Part shown: piece after piece, positions 6,471 to 54,512 of the stretch
Layout: the number at the start of each line of letters is the position of its first letter
How positions within the stretch are numbered: position 1 is the first letter of the stretch
DNA from: Eledone cirrhosa
Taxonomy: Eukaryota
DNA: 64,000 nt
Assembly: GCA_964016885.1 (NCBI GenBank)
Contig: OZ024748.1
Location: forward strand, 5,828,001 to 5,892,000
Direction: 5' to 3'
Position numbers and translations under genes: made by a program
Notes under the pieces: generated by a model
What the model was told of the DNA's origin: nothing
Seen by the model: only the letters and a program-made list of their open reading frames with translations
The model's database searches: none

Positions 6471-6670
6471 ATAGGAAAAGAGTCAAGACCCGGACGGCAG
6501 AGATCAAGCCGTTTCGACGGCTATTTCTGAGTTCAGAAATACCAGTCGAAACCGCTTGAGCTCTGCCCTCGGGGTCTTGAATCTTTTCCTATTACCCACC
6601 TTACTACCCAAAGTATCGAGTACTCTGGTGCGTTATGGTCCACCTGGTTCCTTACCACACTTCCTACGTT
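6471..6670 (+). mobile_element. Hairpin element family A (TA-microsatellite-embedded), older copy
   Basis: Homologous to 12127-12324 and 29764-29944. Short inverted arm plus long arm ending CCTTACCACACTTCCTACGT(TA)n. Confidence 0.8.
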
Positions 6671-7787: not shown

Positions 7788-7845
<58 letters not shown>

Positions 7846-7878
7846 AAGGGCCGGAGTTCAGCCATCGGGGTCCTGAAT

Positions 7879-12084: not shown

Positions 12085-12126
<42 letters not shown>

Positions 12127-12127
<1 letters not shown>

Positions 12128-12320
12128 ACGAAGGAAATGTGGTAAGGAACCAGATGGACCATAACGCACCAAAGTACTCAATACTTAGGGTAGTAGAGTG
12201 GGTAATAGGAACGAGTAGGACCCCGACGGCTGAGCTCAAGCCGTTTCGACGGCTAATTCTGGACTGTCTAGAATTAGCCGTCGAAACGGCTTGAGCTCAG
12301 CCGTCGGGGTCCTACTCGTT

Positions 12321-12324
<4 letters not shown>
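12127..12324. mobile_element. Hairpin element family A, young copy with perfect 55-bp inverted arms
   Basis: 12206-12260 is the exact reverse complement of 12270-12324. The long arm extends to 12127. Flanked by (TA)n on both sides. Confidence 0.9.
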
Positions 12325-12387
<63 letters not shown>

Positions 12388-12412
12388 TATAATATATATA
12401 TATATGTATATA

Positions 12413-12505
<93 letters not shown>

Positions 12506-12583
12506 TATATATATATATAATATATATATATATAATATATATACATATAATATATATATATAATATATATATATATATAATAC

Positions 12584-12668
<85 letters not shown>

Positions 12669-13556: not shown

Positions 13557-13592
13557 TATTCTGATGAGGGGTTCGTTTCGAAACATCAGTCA
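13557..13592 (+). ncRNA. Minimal hammerhead-like motif (decayed)
   Basis: ATT-CTGATGA-GGG GTTCG TTTC-GAAA-CA-TC-AGT. GAAACATC looks like CpG-decayed GAAACGTC. Followed ~70 nt later by (TA)n. Confidence 0.5.
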
Positions 13593-13795: not shown

Positions 13796-14497
13796 ACACG
13801 TTTATATATGTGTATGCATATAATCGCGTCTTGGAGGTATTTCCCTAACATATTCGTAACACTTAATGTCTTATTGGCATCGAAGCGTCTCTAATACTGC
13901 GTTTTGGAGGTATTGGATTTACTTATGCTCCCAAATGTTCATGATATAAGATCCTGCAAATCTCCGCCTCTTTCCCGCCCCTAATTACTTTATTTAAATG
14001 TGTAGTCTACCTTAGCGTTCCATCTGAAATATAACCCCCTGTCCACCAACAAAAAATATTTCGTGTGAGAGATGACCTAATCAGCGAAGCTTAGTATAAC
14101 CGTGATTGCTAGGCTTAAGAACGATTGGTATGATACATGAGATTCTTGTGAAAGAACAACAATCTATAAATCTCATGTGGTTCTAACATCTAGTAGCTAT
14201 GCTTACTCCATATATTGATGATGAGATTTAATAAGATCGAAACGTGCTTTGACTCACTCTCAACGTTGGCTAAACTTCAGATCAAAAGGCTTATAGAATT
14301 ATTGGTGGACTCTCGAGGAGGACCAGAGTTTCAAAAATGTACTTAATACGTTGGTAGAGTATAGGCATCCACATGTTGTATAGAAATGGGTTCTACAGGA
14401 CTAAATCAGTTTCATTAACGTGAAATCATCAGAAAAATCCTCATGATTCCATTCGAATGAAACCTTTCTACTACTGTAGAAGTAATTTCTATATATA

Positions 14498-15246
14498 ATA
14501 ATTGTTTCTACTTTTGGCACAAGGCCAGCAATTATCCTAGTGTATTACTGGTACTTTATTTTATCGACCCCGTAAGGATGAAAGGCAAAGTCAACCTCGA
14601 CGGGATTTGAACTCAGTCCGTAAAGGGACGTAACTGTGCTGCAAAGCATGGCGACCGACCCTCTACCGATACTGCCAATCCATGGTTTCTGATTTAGGCA
14701 CAAGGCCAACAATTTTGGGAGAGGGGGAAGTCGATTAAATTATCGACCATGTAAGGATGAAGGCCAAAGCTAACCACGTCGACATTTGAATTCAGAACGT
14801 AAAGGGCAATAACTAAATATAGCATAGCATTTTGTCCGACGCTCTATAGATTCTATATAAAACAATTGTTTCTACTTTTGGCACAAAGCCAGCAATTACC
14901 CCAGTACATTACTGGTACTTTATTTTATCGACCCCGTAAGGATGAAAGGCAAAGTTAACATTGACGGAATTTGAACTCAATAATTGTTTCTACTTTTTTG
15001 CACAAGGCCAGCAAATCCCCAGTGCATTACTGGTACATTATTTTATCGAGAACTCAACAATTGTTTCTACTTTAGGCACAAGGCCAGCAAACCCCCAGTG
15101 CATTACTGGTACATTATTTTATCGAGAACTCAATAATTGTTTCTACTTTAGGCACAAGGCCAGCAAACACCCAGTGCATTACTGGTACATTATTTTATCG
15201 AGAACTCAATAATTGTTTCTACTTTAGGCACAAGGCCAGCAATTAC
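14498..15246 (-). mobile_element. Cluster of SINE family 1: two near-full copies, one 5'-truncated copy and a ~75-bp tandem array of the SINE 3' end
   Basis: Copies at ~14498-14682, ~14683-14856 and ~14862-14980. The unit AATTGTTTCTACTTTAGGCACAAGGCCAGCAAA..CCAGTGCATTACTGGTACATTATTTTATCGAGAACTCAAT then repeats ~3.5 times. Confidence 0.85.
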
Positions 15247-22242: not shown

Positions 22243-22356
22243 AGATAGATTGTGGTCAAAACTAAGTAAACCAGAGTACTCAATACTTGGGCTAATTCAG
22301 ATCTAGCTGTCGAAACGGCCGGAACTCAGCAGCCGGCGGGGTCCTGAATATTTTCA
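22243..22356. mobile_element. Hairpin family A, old partial copy
   Basis: CCAGAGTACTCAATACTT...GATCTAGCTGTCGAAACGGCCGGAACTCAGC..GGGGTCCTGAAT within (TA)n. Confidence 0.65.
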
Positions 22357-25647: not shown

Positions 25648-25673
25648 TATAAATTTATATATATATATATATA

Positions 25674-25735
25674 TAGGTAAAGGTATGACCCCGACGGCAG
25701 ACCTCGAGCCGTTTCGACGGCTATTTTTGGACTAC
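25674..25735 (-). mobile_element. Hairpin family A, single short arm
   Basis: TAGGTAAAGGTATGACCCCGACGGCAGACCTCGAGCCGTTTCGACGGCTATTTTTGGAC within (TA)n. Confidence 0.75.
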
Positions 25736-29722: not shown

Positions 29723-30043
<321 letters not shown>

Positions 30044-39484: not shown

Positions 39485-39692
39485 AACAAAGAAGGTGTAG
39501 TAAGATACCATTTGGACCATAATGACCCAGAGTACTCGACACTTAGGGTTGTAGTGTGGATAATATGAAAAGAGTCAGGACCCCAACGGTTGAGCTCCGG
39601 CCGTTTCGACAGCTAGATCCGAACTCCGAACAGTTAGGATCTAGCTGCCGAAACGGCCGGAGCTCAGCAGCCGAGGTCCTGACTCCTTTCCT
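39485..39692. mobile_element. Hairpin family A, old full copy
   Basis: Long arm from AACAAAGAAGGTGTAGTAAG and inverted arms around GAACTCCGAACAGTTA. Core variants are CTGTCGA and CTGCCGA. Confidence 0.8.
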
Positions 39693-42078
39693 ATATACAT
39701 ATATATACTCTGCGTTTGCGGTTCGGGGATCGAGAAGAAATGTCGAGGGAGGCTCTAATTATATTTTGGTGCAGGGTAGGCATATAGCTAAAGTATAAAC
39801 CCAACGGAGGCTCCACTCCATCTCAGTTAACTCACAAGTTCTGACATATTAAATCTACACTACATTCCACTGTATTTCTTCAAAGGTCCAGCTTCGATTC
39901 ATACCGTATCACAATTCTATTAAGACTATACATGACTAAGAAATAATCAATCAATTACATATAAGTGTAAGTGTGAGTACCACGTCCAATTTATCGAACA
40001 GTTAGAAAACTCATCATAAGGGTCGGATTTAGTCATTTTGAGGCCCTAGCGCTGAAATATTACACCTACACTACATCTTGAGAATATCTATTATATGAAA
40101 AATATATGTACATATATATTTGTATTTTTTAAATATTATATGTATACATATATACATATATATATATATATAGTTCTTTTCATATCTTTTATTTACTGCC
40201 GGCCCTCTGTTTGTGTACATTGGTTCAGGTAAATACAACAATGGTGCGTCTCTTTTCTTATTGCACCAATCATATACCTATTTTGCTTAATAGTTAATCC
40301 AACCTGCTCATCATTGAAACCGACTGGACGTCTATCATTAAAAAGAAACACGAGATGGTCATGATTACAAACTTTTTGATCATAGGTCTGCTGTATCAGG
40401 GCTGATCTGGTATTAAATATGCAGAACAACGTATTATATTGGAAAGTTGGCTTATTCGATTTCTTCTATGGAAGAGACGGCTTTACGTCGTCTAGTCATA
40501 TCTAATCGATATTTGGCAGCTTAGAAGGATTTAGTACCAATGCCTTTATATTCTTCTGTTGATGTTGTTAATGTTCGAGATCTATATATGATCTATTCCT
40601 TTTTCATATTGATTTTTTTGTGATAACACACAGGCGGCGGATTGGCTGAGTCGTTAGAGCGAAGAAGAAAATTCCTTGTGGTATTTCTCCCGGCTCACTG
40701 CTCTGCGCTTTGAGATCAAATTCAGGAGAGTTCCATTTCTCCTTTCATCCTTTACAGGGTCAGTAAATTAATAGACCAGTCAAAGTCGGTGGATTAGTGA
40801 ATTGTTTGAGAATTGTGTGAGATAACTTGCGGTATTTTGTCCAACTTTTTAGTAGCTGTTTAGTCAAATATTGCCGCTTCTACTTTCTAAAATAAGGTGC
40901 TTGGTTAATCGCTGCTACAGATATCACCGATTATCCGATACCTGAAAGTCCTTCTGTTCAGGTTGTCCACATGAATACCAAGCCACGCTCTAAGGCCGTC
41001 GGCACTCATATGTTCCCACTAACCCACTAAGGATGCTTTCTGGCCGTCTATCTATTGTAAAGTACCATGGGGTCTGGTAGCATTTCAGGTGACCGCAAAG
41101 AATTAAGATATTGGGGACAGTAGAAAAAGAGAAAAAACAAAACAAAACAAAACAAAACAGAGGGTTTTACCTCGAGTAAAGGAAAACAAACAACAACAAA
41201 GGAAAAACATTAACTATAACAATACCAATAATTGTATGTCATAATAACAATACAAAACTATAAAAAATATCAGAATACAAGGAGGGGCTTGCAGTTTAGG
41301 GCGATTTCAAAAAAAACTCCACACAAAATCCTGGATTATTCTGTCATCCCACTAGCATTAAAGGTGCCCTCAACCAGTTTCTTTCACCCTGATTAAAAAG
41401 CCATAGTTAGAATAGGTCAATTTAGTCGAGTCAACCTAACCACACAGACCCATCTTTTATAAAACCCAGTAGAAGACAGCAACTCCCTCTCTACTCTAAT
41501 CTTGACGAAGTTGGTACTTGACGAAGTTGGTGAAGGCCTGGCAAAAGTGGAAGATTTTTGTCCTCAAACGTTCAAGTCGTGTCCATCATAAAGCTTCTTT
41601 TAATATAGCAAACAGGCAGAGAAATTATTGCTACACCTCCCTTATAATAACAATAATGATAATATTAATGATAATATTAATGATAATAATGATAATAATA
41701 ATAATTATAATGATAAAAACAAAAAAAAAATCATCATCAATAATTAGGATTAATTAATACTCGGCTCTGCTTTTTTTACTGAGGCGATAATTTTCTCGTT
41801 GAAGCGAATCGGCAACACAATTTTGATGAAATTGAACATCCATTACCTTTGCAAGTAGTCATCACCATCACCATCATTATCATAGTAATCATTAACAGAA
41901 CAGCAGCAACAACAACAACTTCATCCTCTTCTTCCACTTCCTTCTCATCATCATCATTATCAACATCGTAAACATATTGATGTTATCATTATTACATTTA
42001 TTTATAGAGATATCTATTTATAAATATATTTGTTTGTATCTTTGATGCTCTCTGGGCAAAAGTACTATTTACTGCTGT

Positions 42079-43819: not shown

Positions 43820-46564
43820 TCCCTCCCCCATGAAGAATGCACCCCCCCCCCCAACATAGACTCATAGTCAGCGACCTCATAGTCAGGAAAAGACGTACTC
43901 GACAACAGAGGAGGACTAGCCTCAGGAGAAAAATATGGAAGCTAAAGGATACCACAGACAGTAATAAATTTAAAAGCATATTACTTGATGCTTTCGACAG
44001 TAAGGAAGAGCAATTAGAGTCGTACAATATAGAGGAACAGTGGGAATTCCTGAAAGCTAAACTGCTGAAGGCGGCAGATGAAGTTTGTGGCTGGAGCAGG
44101 GCTATAGGCAGGAGGAGAGTAACGTGGTGGTGGAATAGTAAGGTGGAGGAGTCAATTAAGGTCAAAAAGCAGGCTTGGAAAGTATGGCGGGATGGGGGAA
44201 CTAGAGAAGACTATCAAGTGGCCAGGAGGGAAGCTAGGAGACAAGTGTACTTCGCAAGAAGGGAAGCAGAGGAAAGAAAGTTCAAGCATGTTCTACAACG
44301 CGAGGACCAAAAACGTGAGGTGTACAGGATTGCTAGGCAATGTGTCAAGGAAAACCGTGATATTGTCGGGGAGAAGTGTGTCCTTAATGATGATGGTGTA
44401 CTTGCCATCACTGACGCTGATAAGAAGGTAGCTTGGAAGTGTCACTACGAAAGGCTACTAAATGAGGAGAATAAATGGGAGAAAGACAGTCTCCCCCACA
44501 TCGATCCAATAGTGGAGTTGAAGGTAGTATAAGTTGAGTTGAAGGTAGTGCGAGTTGAAGGTAGTATAATAAGTAAGGCAATCAAAGATATGAAGACGGG
44601 TAAGGCGGCCGGGCCTGCGGAAATAGTTGGTGAAATTCTGAAAGCATCTGGAACGGTGGGACACACTATGGTCACCCGCATACTAAACCAGGTCATACAG
44701 AATGGGGCCGTTCCGAAGGACTGGCGTAGCAGCATCATCATTAACTCCTACAAGGGTAAATGAGATGCTCTTGATAGGGGTAACTATAGAGGCATTAAAT
44801 TAATCGACCAGGTCATGAAGGTCACAGAAAAAGTAATAGCGCAACTAATCAGAGAACGAATTGATCTAGATGAAATGCAGTTCGGGTTCGTGTCAGGTAA
44901 AAGTACCACAGACGCTCTTTTCGTTGTACGACAACTACAAGAGAAGTACCTAGCTAAACCCTTATACTTAGCTTTTGTTGACTTGGAGAAAGCCTTTGAC
45001 AGAGTCCCCCGCTCCATTATCTGGTGGGTGCTTAGAGAACTAGGTGTTGATGAATGGCTTGTGAGATCTATACAAGCCATGTATAAAGAACCAGTCAGCA
45101 AGGTTAGAATTAACAACTAATATAGTGAAGAGTTTAGCGTAAAAGTTGGTGTTCATCAGGGCTCTGTTCTTAGCCTCCTACTATTTATTATTGCCCTTCA
45201 GGCTATAACAGAGGAGTTCAAGACCGGCTGCCCATGGGAACTCCTATATGCAGATGATCTAACGCTCATAGCTGAATCAATGGCTGAACTAGAGAAGAAA
45301 TTCCAAACATGGAAGCATGGCCTATAATCAAAAGGCCTTAAAGTTAATTTGTCTAAGACTAAAGTTCTAGTTTGTAGGAAGGAAAATAGGGTACCGGTCC
45401 CATCTGGGAAATGGCCATGCTTAGTGTGTAGGAAAGGAGTAGGCAGAAACTCCATTTTATGTCCCAAATGCAAAGTATGCGTGCATAAAAGATGTAGTGG
45501 GATCACAGGTAAGCTAACTAAGAATATAGATTTTATATGTGGCCGGTGCTCTGTTGCAATAAGTAGCAGCAAGTGCCCACAAATACTAGCTCATTCCATT
45601 GCACAGATAATACTATAGAAATAGTGGACACCTTCCGTTACCTGGGTGACAAAATCAGCAGTGGGGGAGGGTGCTCTGAAAGTACAGTAGCTAGAGTCAG
45701 AACGGGATGGAAAAAGTTCAGAGAGCTTATACCAATATTGGCCGCTAAAGAGTTCCCTCTAAAAATGAAAGGCAGGCTGTATAATGCCTGCATACGAACA
45801 GCAATGTTACATGGCAGTGAGACCTGGGCATTGTGTGCAGAGGATATACGCAGACTGGAAAGAAACGAAGCTTGCATGCTCCGCTGGATGTGTAATAGTA
45901 ATATACGTGAACGGCAAAGGATAAACGAACTAAGGGAGAAATTAGGAATAAGAGGGATCAGATGTTGTTTACTCGAGAGAAGACTACGTTGGTACGGTCA
46001 CGTGATGCGCATGAAAGACGACAGCTGTATAAAAAAGTGCAGGGCGATAAAAATAGACGGTAGCCACGGAGTAGGCAGACCCAGAAAAACCTGGGACGAC
46101 TTGATAAATTCCGACCTCACACACTTACACCTCTCCAAGACAATGTCACTGGACCGAGATCTTTGGCGCTACACAGTCATACAGAAGAACCGCCTTGCCT
46201 AAGTACAAAGCGAAACCTACAGTCAGTAGGCACCTCTAACAAAATACCCCCCCCCCCCCTCAACACCCTTAAATGTGAAGTTATGTTGGTACCACAGCAT
46301 CCAGTCCGAAACAAATGAGGTCGTGTAGGTGTCACGACAAAAAAACACACAGTCCACGCTGTAATGTGGCCGTGTAGGTAACACGGTAAAAACCTCCTAG
46401 TCCACACTGTAAACGTGGTTGGTGTTAGGAAGGGCATCCAGCCGTAGAAAACCCGCTAGACAGTCCTATACGAGCAGGACAACACATCTTGTCTCAAGTG
46501 GGAAACCTCCCGTCCAAACCCATGCAAGATGGAAGATGGATTTAAACGATGATGATGATGATGA

Positions 46565-48793: not shown

Positions 48794-48881
48794 TAGGAAA
48801 CCATTACCCACTCTACTACCTCAAGTATTGAGTACTTTGGTGCGTTATGGTCCACCTGGTTTCCTTACCACATTTCCTTCG

Positions 48882-48884
<3 letters not shown>
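48794..48884 (+). mobile_element. Hairpin family A copy with the palindrome deleted
   Basis: TAGGAAACCA is joined directly to TTACCCACTCTACTACC...CATTTCCTTCGT(TA)n. Confidence 0.8.
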
Positions 48885-50247: not shown

Positions 50248-50251
<4 letters not shown>

Positions 50252-50409
50252 AAAAAGTATGACCCCGACGGCACAGTTCAAGCCGTTTTTCTGGACCAGA
50301 AATAGCCGTCGAAACGGCTTGAGCTCTGCCGTCGTGGTAATACTTTTTCCAATTACCCACTCTACTACCCTATGTATTGAGTCTGGTTCCTTACCACAAT
50401 TCCTTCGTT
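50248..50409 (+). mobile_element. Hairpin family A copy with internal deletions
   Basis: GGAAAAAGTATGACCCCGACGG...CCGTCGTGGTAATACTTTTTCC plus the long-arm tail. Confidence 0.8.
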
Positions 50410-53474: not shown

Positions 53475-53731
53475 TAGATATTTATATATATATAGATATA
53501 GATAGATAAATATACACGGGTGTGTATGATTGTGTATAGAAGATTATATTAATAAGAGGAATTCCAACTTACTCGTTTTATTTACAATCCCTTAAAATGT
53601 ATAATGGTATTATAATGAAATAGTATGATAGAATATTAAATGTTAAGTGTTAATTGAACAAGTACTTTCATGCTTTCGCAATCTTCAGGTTCATAATGTG
53701 TGGTGACAGTCAAGTTTGCAATTTTCAACTA

Positions 53732-53805
<74 letters not shown>

Positions 53806-54396: not shown

Positions 54397-54512
54397 ATAA
54401 CGAAGGAAATGTGGTAAGGAACCAGTTCTCTGCAGATATATGTACGTAGTTGCATATGTATATATATATATATATACATGTATATATATATATATATATA
54501 TACATGTATATA

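Follow-up and report, generated by a model that had tools for sequence, protein, structure and literature searches.

In the accessible text of the papers closest to our subject, little is settled about what the hammerhead ribozymes of Penelope-like elements (PLEs) do: Cervera and de la Pena 2014 (PMC4209133) give no in vivo evidence for a role, Craig 2021 (PMC8557442) calls the function unclear, and Frangieh 2024 (PMC11167929) describes neither RNA ends at the cut nor a need for cleavage in vitro. From the same portions of these sources, PLE insertions are described as having an inverted 5'-truncated copy, with a tail at one end (PMC8557442, from which the diagnostic motifs of the Hydra clade used below are also taken), and reverse transcription (RT) starting at two sites has been shown in vitro for an anole PLE (PMC11167929), which is the basis of the analogy drawn here. 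A U3-A8 pair is a natural hammerhead covariation (Cervera and de la Pena 2014, PMC4209133; Perreault 2011, PMC3088659), and the sections available of these two papers report the U3-A8 form in Schistosoma PLEs as active in vitro. Penelope and rotifer pLTRs are described, in excerpts of the literature, as having initiator-type promoters. The locus studied here, in Eledone cirrhosa, belongs to a repeat family (family A) that can be set beside these systems. Judged from its sequence, the 198-bp unit of this family is a head-to-head pair of pLTR-end copies from a young Penelope-like element with Hydra-clade motifs.

The window is the whole stretch of DNA that was analysed, 64,000 nucleotides long. 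A preliminary description of it had named about 10 copies of a hairpin family in or against (TA)n, and all 10 places do hold a copy or fragment of family A, each in or against (TA)n (Table 1). The unit at 12127 starts with a unique part of ~78-80 nt on one side, followed by the inverted repeat. Its tail-bearing copy agrees with the long pLTR copies L275 and L283 at 136 of 138 letters, so the RNA-sense strand of the tail-bearing arm in the window is the minus strand. Throughout, positions are numbered with the A of AGTCC as +1.

Table 1. Family-A features in the 64-kb window, with the parts of the two arms of the 12127 unit
Feature	Position	Strand	Basis
Tail-bearing pLTR-end copy, +1 (12265, A of initiator-like AGTCC) to ~+138	12128..12265	-	sequence identity to long pLTR copies
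PLE tail, +59 to ~+138, between two inferred RT start sites	12128..12207	-	one-arm occurrence among fetched copies
Arm 1, hammerhead 3' half on tail-bearing copy	12208..12265	-	sequence, alignment, pair counts
Arm 1, GAAA	12247-12244	-	
Arm 1, C17; predicted cut between 12225 and 12224	12225	-	
Arm 2, tail-less inverted copy, +2 to +58	12266..12322	+	sequence, alignment, pair counts
Arm 2, stem II 3' strand	12276-12282	+	
Arm 2, GAAA (core GAA 12283-12285)	12283-12286	+	
Arm 2, stem III	12286-12290/12300-12304	+	
Arm 2, GUC (C17 12305)	12303-12305	+	
Arm 2, stem I 3' strand	12306-12310	+	
59-bp inverted repeat, 1 mismatch, 3-nt centre; centre varies between genomic copies	12205..12325	.	fold + copy comparison
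(TA)n target, left flank	12106..12127	.	sequence
(TA)n target, right flank	12323..12668	.	sequence + repeat listing
Older palindrome-plus-tail copy, RNA sense +	6471..6670	+	window search
Old arm fragment	7845..7874	+	window search
Old-subfamily copy with internal deletion	22270..22345	.	window search
Solo tail-less arm between TA tracts	25673..25733	-	window search
Young palindrome-plus-tail copy; same subfamily variants on both arms	29764..29944	+	window search
Old-subfamily palindrome-plus-tail copy	39485..39693	-	window search
Tail with collapsed arms	48803..48883	+	window search
Middle-subfamily copy with deletions	50248..50409	+	window search
Last 27 letters of tail only	54399..54425	-	window search

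Other sequences in the window were recorded alongside these copies. The end of a further hammerhead family (CTGAAGAT core, Hydra type), the same family as in L156, lies beside (TA)n at 53560-53800 (-), and isolated CTGATGA...GAAA motifs with a short stem II and a weak stem I occur at 13561 (+) and 20078 (-). Two tandem repeats of high identity were found, one of 41 nt (1-195, 4.8 copies) and one of 76 nt (14973-15242, 3.5 copies). Open frames at 43834-44529 and 45567-46199 (+) gave no match in Pfam; we take them to resemble decayed LINE pieces.

The parent element was found by following copies past the tail. Two of 50 sampled palindrome copies extend beyond the tail, and one of them (L127) goes on into coding sequence. 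The junction from tail to 5' UTR/ORF is present in 304 genomic places, several of them spaced 3.53-3.54 kb, and the fetched arrays contain tandem units, an ORF of 784 codons from stop to stop (frameshifted in some) and an inverted 5'-truncated copy. The unit measures ~3.5 kb, with a 3' UTR of ~1.1 kb; the ORF, encoding 717 aa from the ATG with RT and GIY-YIG motifs, begins ~230 nt after +1. Intact ORFs are present and the parent is young. The expectation in the preliminary description of a young, hammerhead-related (TA)n family linked to a Penelope-like RT/GIY-YIG element was borne out.

Among 7,996 proteins scored, 2,049 were relatives of the 717-aa protein at E<=1e-20, at ~40% identity. The protein itself had zero matches in Pfam and PDB, and profile comparisons were likewise uninformative; its homolog P0001 has a Pfam GIY-YIG match. 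In 34 aligned proteins the motifs FD, RW(K/R), DKT, YRDDG, CxCX5C, YxC..YIG..R..H, CxxC and CxH are conserved and CCHH is absent. The 717-aa protein has RLRWR at 35 and SDKTG at 116, which correspond to the RWK-like motif and the DKG-to-DKT change of the Hydra clade, and CNC..CP at 572-581 with a single Cys between the two GIY-YIG strands, which corresponds to CxCX5C without CCHH. EN+ Penelope-like elements are characterised by a single RT/GIY-YIG ORF, by tandem pLTR units with an inverted 5'-truncated copy and by a one-sided tail, and family A has all of these; it also shares the preference of the Hydra clade for insertion into (TA)n. By its protein motifs, the parent would be placed with Hydra-clade PLEs.

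Pattern searches covered the 3.0-Gb genome, with reversed patterns as controls. A palindrome pattern with perfect arms of 17+17 nt and a free centre matched 7,063 genomic places (reversed control 0), and the 30 best family-A loci had both ends in common and lay in (TA)n. The sample scored for palindromes was the first 50 listed of the 7,063; such lists take the first 50-100 matches, from contigs C1-C2, and are non-random. The tail was on exactly one arm in 48 of these 50 copies by probe, and in L121 by eye, and on both arms in none. There were 35 distinct centre junctions among the 50; 32 centres were blunt or overlapping, 18 had inserted bases, and 8 palindromes were perfect without any loop. 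The two arms carried one subfamily haplotype in 44 of 49 scored palindromes, where random pairing would give 13.4. Because the centres vary, bases are inserted, loop-less cases occur and the arms are concordant, each insertion likely formed its palindrome anew from a single-arm template. A long inverted repeat between TA flanks is also what a miniature inverted-repeat DNA transposon with a TA target duplication would present; such an origin is scarcely credible given the one-sided tail, the variable centre and the continuity with an RT ORF.

The short unit might also be an independent non-autonomous element, SINE- or retrozyme-like, with masters of its own, the TA tract serving as TATA box, and mobilised in trans. 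In the genome 826 arms stand directly after (TA)n, short family-A copies outnumber long ones, and there are ORF-less tandem derivatives (257-nt in L131, a 299-nt array in L221), all in keeping with such an element. What it does not predict is that centres differ between copies (35 in 50), that long pLTR copies carry the same subfamily variants as short ones, and that short copies end at the two tail boundaries expected from a parent RNA. On this evidence we regard independence as unlikely and retain the parent PLE as the source of the short copies.

Several arrangements at single loci were noted. L004/L005 (C4:53013861-53014282) are two identical family-A insertions, tail to tail over 32 nt of TA. 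In L052 and L105 solo arms follow runs of 12-16 T, which suggests long untemplated A addition to cDNA ends. The flanks of L008, L020, L044, L047 and L049 hold several unrelated long palindromes within (TA)n, possibly the end pairs of further PLE families. The array in L221 (C2:356029001-356034000) has eight tandem 299-nt units without ORF, seven of which contain the two halves of the ribozyme, loop II being shortened; in sequence it has the layout of a retrozyme and appears to derive from the family-A pLTR.

The positions at which short copies begin were scored in 71 arms that no search had targeted. Starts fell at -5..+6 in 41 arms and at +7..+19 in 20, and 10 ran through the whole ribozyme (7 by script and L263, L198 and L262 by eye); none of the 71 truly ended between -6 and -45. 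The context of +1 is YYAGT in every aligned subfamily, which we take to resemble a Pol II initiator, and +1 lies inside a 33-nt loop II of the hammerhead described below. A TATA-like word stands 29 nt upstream of +1 in the youngest subfamilies only, the older ones being without it; most of what a TATA-anchored search of these retrieved was palindromes and solo arms. In 100 listed of the 826 arms next to (TA)n, the letter before AGTCC, read by eye, was G in 19, C in 9, A in 6, an extra T in 14 and plain TA in 52. Neither template nor target supplies a G, its excess over the strand-symmetric background is modest (14 vs 4), and it may have been copied from the cap. Some cDNAs that reach +1 continue on the ORF of the same element (L127, L131) or on other PLE families (L046, L151, L156). 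In Logan contigs of four runs, a kind of data that cannot show starts or cleavage, loose ends run into (TA)n at +61 and +141, and there are joints close to +1. From the DNA ends, +1 is likely the RNA 5' end and transcription start. A transcript begun inside loop II would hold only half a ribozyme.

Two further PLEs were examined. Family B (window 14270-14520 (-); L161-L190; L222) is a Hydra-type sister; its ORF is 42% identical to that of family A and, in the copies examined, decayed. It has the same palindromes and the same pile-up, with a start ~30 nt after a TATAAATA box and just before a whole canonical hammerhead, which comes shortly after a TATA box. The GTATTGAGTAC word in its tail is common with family A and is a candidate RT-binding signal on sequence grounds. 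A second very young PLE (L033, L071-L100, L159:1654-5460 (-)) has a 1,268-aa ORF with a Pfam GIY-YIG match and a canonical hammerhead, and its near-identical copies, at least 150 of them, are paired head to head; from its motifs we presume it to be Neptune-like. Chimeric joints (L046, L151) had made it a candidate partner of family A, which was rejected: family A has its own ORF and the tail is not shared.

Upstream of the arm, the full pLTR has ACCCC, TTGAGAA and then the 5' strand of stem II, and the whole is predicted to form a complete type-I hammerhead with a U3-A8 core. Its stem I is ACCCC/GGGGU and its core UUGANAA; stem II carries a ~33-nt loop and is followed by GAA, a 5-bp stem III with a palindromic loop, and C17. 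Core positions U4, G5, A6, A9, G12, A13 and A14, the A15.1-U16.1 pair and H17 are all kept, H17 being C. A pattern for the whole hammerhead had 5,518 genomic matches (reversed control 0), with G, A, C and T all represented at N7. Across 7 subfamily groups, variation is absent from the 9 invariant core positions (0/9) and affects 22 of 33 positions in loop II. The six younger groups were partly pre-selected on core letters by this pattern and the oldest was not; in that old subfamily, retrieved without the core pattern, TTGATAA and GAAA are kept in most copies.

Covariation was counted in 43 long copies hand-chosen to span the subfamilies. The hammerhead structure was paired in 93% of cells, and 0 of 500 shuffles were as high in percentage and score. 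Three pairs of stem II had changed on both sides, a pair count that 192 of 500 shuffles reach and that represents about three events among related subfamilies. Stems I and III are conserved without subfamily-level compensation. Position 3-8 was tallied in 45 parsed long copies (23 of 68 matches, not long copies or unparsed, being left out): U-A in 33, C·A in 8, U·G in 2 and single core changes in 2. The 8 copies with CTGAGAA, a C3·A8 mismatch, include the subfamily of the window copy. Because this subfamily has also amplified, the element can probably multiply without cleavage, which agrees with the accessible text of Frangieh 2024 (PMC11167929), where cleavage was not required in vitro.

Thermodynamic predictions were mixed. 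In the youngest copy the MFE fold is the three-way junction of the hammerhead, with a z-score of only -0.45. Only 8 of 43 long copies have the hammerhead fold within 1 kcal of their MFE, its ensemble share being <=0.15, and the RNAalifold consensus is a different fold, in which the core pairs with GGGG and the CGAA hairpin is kept. Rfam had zero matches in the 64-kb window and in the full pLTR. The palindromic 198-bp copies lack the 5' core strand, and because this half of the hammerhead is absent they cannot self-cleave, by established core requirements. Folded as one RNA, the 12127 unit is dominated by its inverted-repeat hairpin (MFE -141 kcal/mol, z -18). Reading the arm's own 5' end as a decayed CUGAUGA was dropped, the true 5' half having been found upstream in the full element. 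Scanning the 36 nt before the arm for CTGANGA produced 62 scattered matches and no family; the 32 inspected were mutations, insertions or chimeras.

The preliminary description had read the arm differently, as a hammerhead variant with stem I TAG/CTA, a rewritten core of CCGUCGA and GGGG, and a cut after 12311. The letters stand at 12275-12314 as written, and the proposed stem I has a pair probability of 0.15-0.18 in the isolated arm. The reading is out of register: GAAA sits inside 'CCGTCGA-A', the UUGANAA half lies upstream in the full element, what was proposed as stem II corresponds to stem III, GGGG belongs to stem I as its 3' strand, and the conventional register predicts a cut after 12305. 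In the 43 long copies the proposed parse was 83% paired, which 500 of 500 shuffles equalled, with zero compensated pairs; the G-C pair of its stem I is broken in 12 of 43. It is also less stable than stem III alone (-6.9 vs -7.7 kcal/mol), enforcing its pairs on the 12127 unit leaves -61.8 kcal/mol, a penalty of ~79 kcal/mol, and it is the conventional register that has covariation and a pile-up of ends at its cut site. We give this variant virtually no weight. Its supposed intermediates, CTGTCGA at ~22307 and CTGCCGA...GAGG-TC at ~39644, are present in the window, and both match an older subfamily, in which CTGTC is the 3' strand of stem II and pairs with an upstream CAGCT in long copies. The alternative hairpin GCCGU-CGAA-ACGGC does compete in the single arm, with pair probabilities of ~0.5 vs ~0.5; the switch role suggested for it found no support.

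With the cut of the conventional register at +41/+42, a genome search returned 232 palindromes in which both arms end at or within a few letters of this site, a class about 1/20 the size of the +1 class (232 vs ~4,600, estimated). Among 50 listed of the 232, scored by eye, 19 joints were blunt, 11 had one A or T, 12 had other filler and 8 ran into template; the 19 blunt joints fit collapse at a 2-nt CG microhomology equally well. In an open control, ends were permitted at ~+27..+47, giving 299 places in one subfamily, of which 50 listed were scored by eye. Thirty ended at +42/+43, 16 of these with untemplated A/T against intact GGGG; 15 of these loci were re-scored by script. Of the remaining 20, 10 had collapsed at long internal microhomologies, one arm was longer in 4, 5 were shorter, and in 1 both ends lay at +41. 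Of 40 cut-site-class copies fetched, 39 have one full tail and lie in (TA)n. L360 is joined twice at +42, and one of these joints leads into the ORF region, a jump that palindrome collapse cannot produce.

These ends could have another cause: the same parent, with palindromes made by fold-back self-priming of one cDNA, +1 and +42 being RT stalls or repair hot spots, and the hammerhead a non-cleaving vestige or protein-binding fold. Arm concordance (44/49) fits this alternative equally, and self-priming, proposed for rotifer PLEs, is favoured in the accessible part of Arkhipova 2013; the weak predicted stability of the hammerhead with its competing folds, the amplified C3·A8 subfamily and the microhomology at blunt +42 joints also agree with it. 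It is hard to reconcile with loop-less perfect palindromes (8/50), inserted bases (18/50), the two +42 joints of L360, A/T filler against intact GGGG, and arms joined to other families (L031, L041, L045, L046, L151, L156). Stalling where stem III begins predicts an end at +41, not +42. We consider this alternative improbable, if one to be taken seriously. The +42 class likely reflects reverse transcription of ribozyme-cut RNA, and would then be a genomic footprint of in vivo cleavage as read from DNA ends.

In the six loci just named, family-A arms are fused to sequences from different PLE families, and for some the junction is a short microhomology within the hammerhead of that second family. 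These chimeric insertions are cross-family template jumping.

The explanation that best covers the observations as a whole, and which we think probable, is a parent PLE with a hammerhead split by a start in loop II and with cut-site ends. Pol II would start at the A of YYAGT in loop II, and the mRNA, with GAAA-stem III-GUC as its 5' end, would be unable to cut itself. Read-through into the next pLTR would make a whole ribozyme, which would cut at +41/+42, end one unit and give the RNA of the next unit a 5' end at GGGG. The element's protein would nick both strands of the TA tract and RT would begin at RNA +58 and ~+138, so that cDNAs would run off after 58 or 138 nt, or on cleaved RNA after 17 and 97 nt. 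The run-off cDNAs would gain untemplated A's and be end-joined into a palindrome; alternatively they would jump to another RNA and continue, forming chimeras and tandem units. That the promoter splits the ribozyme, and that the ribozyme, whole only in read-through RNA, cuts in vivo as a 3'-end or unit-release signal, is a narrower proposal that we advance tentatively and with rather more doubt than confidence.

If this proposal is true, a promoter-bisected ribozyme would be a simple means of cutting only at the downstream repeat. The RNA would have a 41-nt terminal redundancy (+1..+41), the short palindromes would be paired 'strong-stop' cDNAs, and the pLTR would be an analogue of U3-R-U5 in which the ribozyme replaces the poly(A) signal. 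The genome appears to record two RNA 5' ends, the start and the cut, in hundreds to thousands of insertions, and the end-histogram test is applicable to any PLE-rich assembly. The abundant TA-embedded palindromes, which a repeat pipeline could take for MITEs, are also explained. The family-A ribozyme was missed by short-loop descriptors and by Rfam.

In the literature searched, which left Repbase and most subscription papers outside, neither a start site inside a PLE hammerhead nor genomic copies starting at its cut are reported. The available portions of the 2026 retrozyme preprint, the O. vulgaris repeat annotation and the NbRZ1 paper (PMC12029980) contained no description of the family-A arrangement, and five short family-A motifs were absent from the text of the Craig 2021 supplement as accessible. 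Going by sequence, what seems new is a PLE hammerhead with U3-A8, a long loop II and a presumed internal start; the U3-A8 variant and the PLE layout are known.

The comparisons below draw on partial texts of the sources cited. Family A resembles Hydra-clade PLEs (Craig 2021, PMC8557442; including Hydra-1_Obim) in its single ORF with C-terminal EN, RW(K/R), DKT and CxCX5C without CCHH, and also in its (TA)n target, inverted 5'-truncated copy, one-sided tail and pLTR hammerhead. It differs in size, 3.5 kb with a ~1.1-kb 3' UTR where the Hydra elements of that paper are mostly <3 kb, and in its tail of ~80 nt vs 30-40. The Hydra hammerheads tabulated in File S2 are all CTGANGA with a loop II of 3-10 nt, whereas that of family A is UUGANAA with ~33 nt, and the presumed start site inside loop II sets it apart from these short-loop forms; the ribozyme tabulated for Hydra-1_oBim is a different sequence. 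With the minimal, type-I hammerheads of PLEs (PMC4209133, PMC3088659) family A shares the type-I topology, a bulge at the foot of stem II, G10.1-C11.1 and a palindromic loop III. Unlike them (PMC4209133), it has a stable 5-bp stem III, with which a monomer could fold, and a very long loop II, and most of its genomic copies are the 3' half only.

Non-LTR retrozymes (bioRxiv 10.64898/2026.07.22.740005) are, like the 198-bp units, short non-coding derivatives of PLE pLTRs with hammerheads. They form head-to-tail arrays with whole ribozymes, whereas the 198-bp units stand head to head with half a ribozyme and fall outside that definition. The plant LTR retrozyme NbRZ1 (PMC12029980) also has its promoter in the ribozyme-bearing repeat; there transcription begins before the ribozyme, which removes the 5' end by cutting, whereas the family-A start would be inside. 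The anole Poseidon PAc (Frangieh 2024, PMC11167929) is similar in that two RT starts define the tail, both strands are cut and extended, and the target is AT-rich. The PAc ORF starts inside the ribozyme, whereas that of family A starts well after +1; and for PAc no reads begin or end at the ribozyme cut, whereas in family A a class of genomic insertions begins there.
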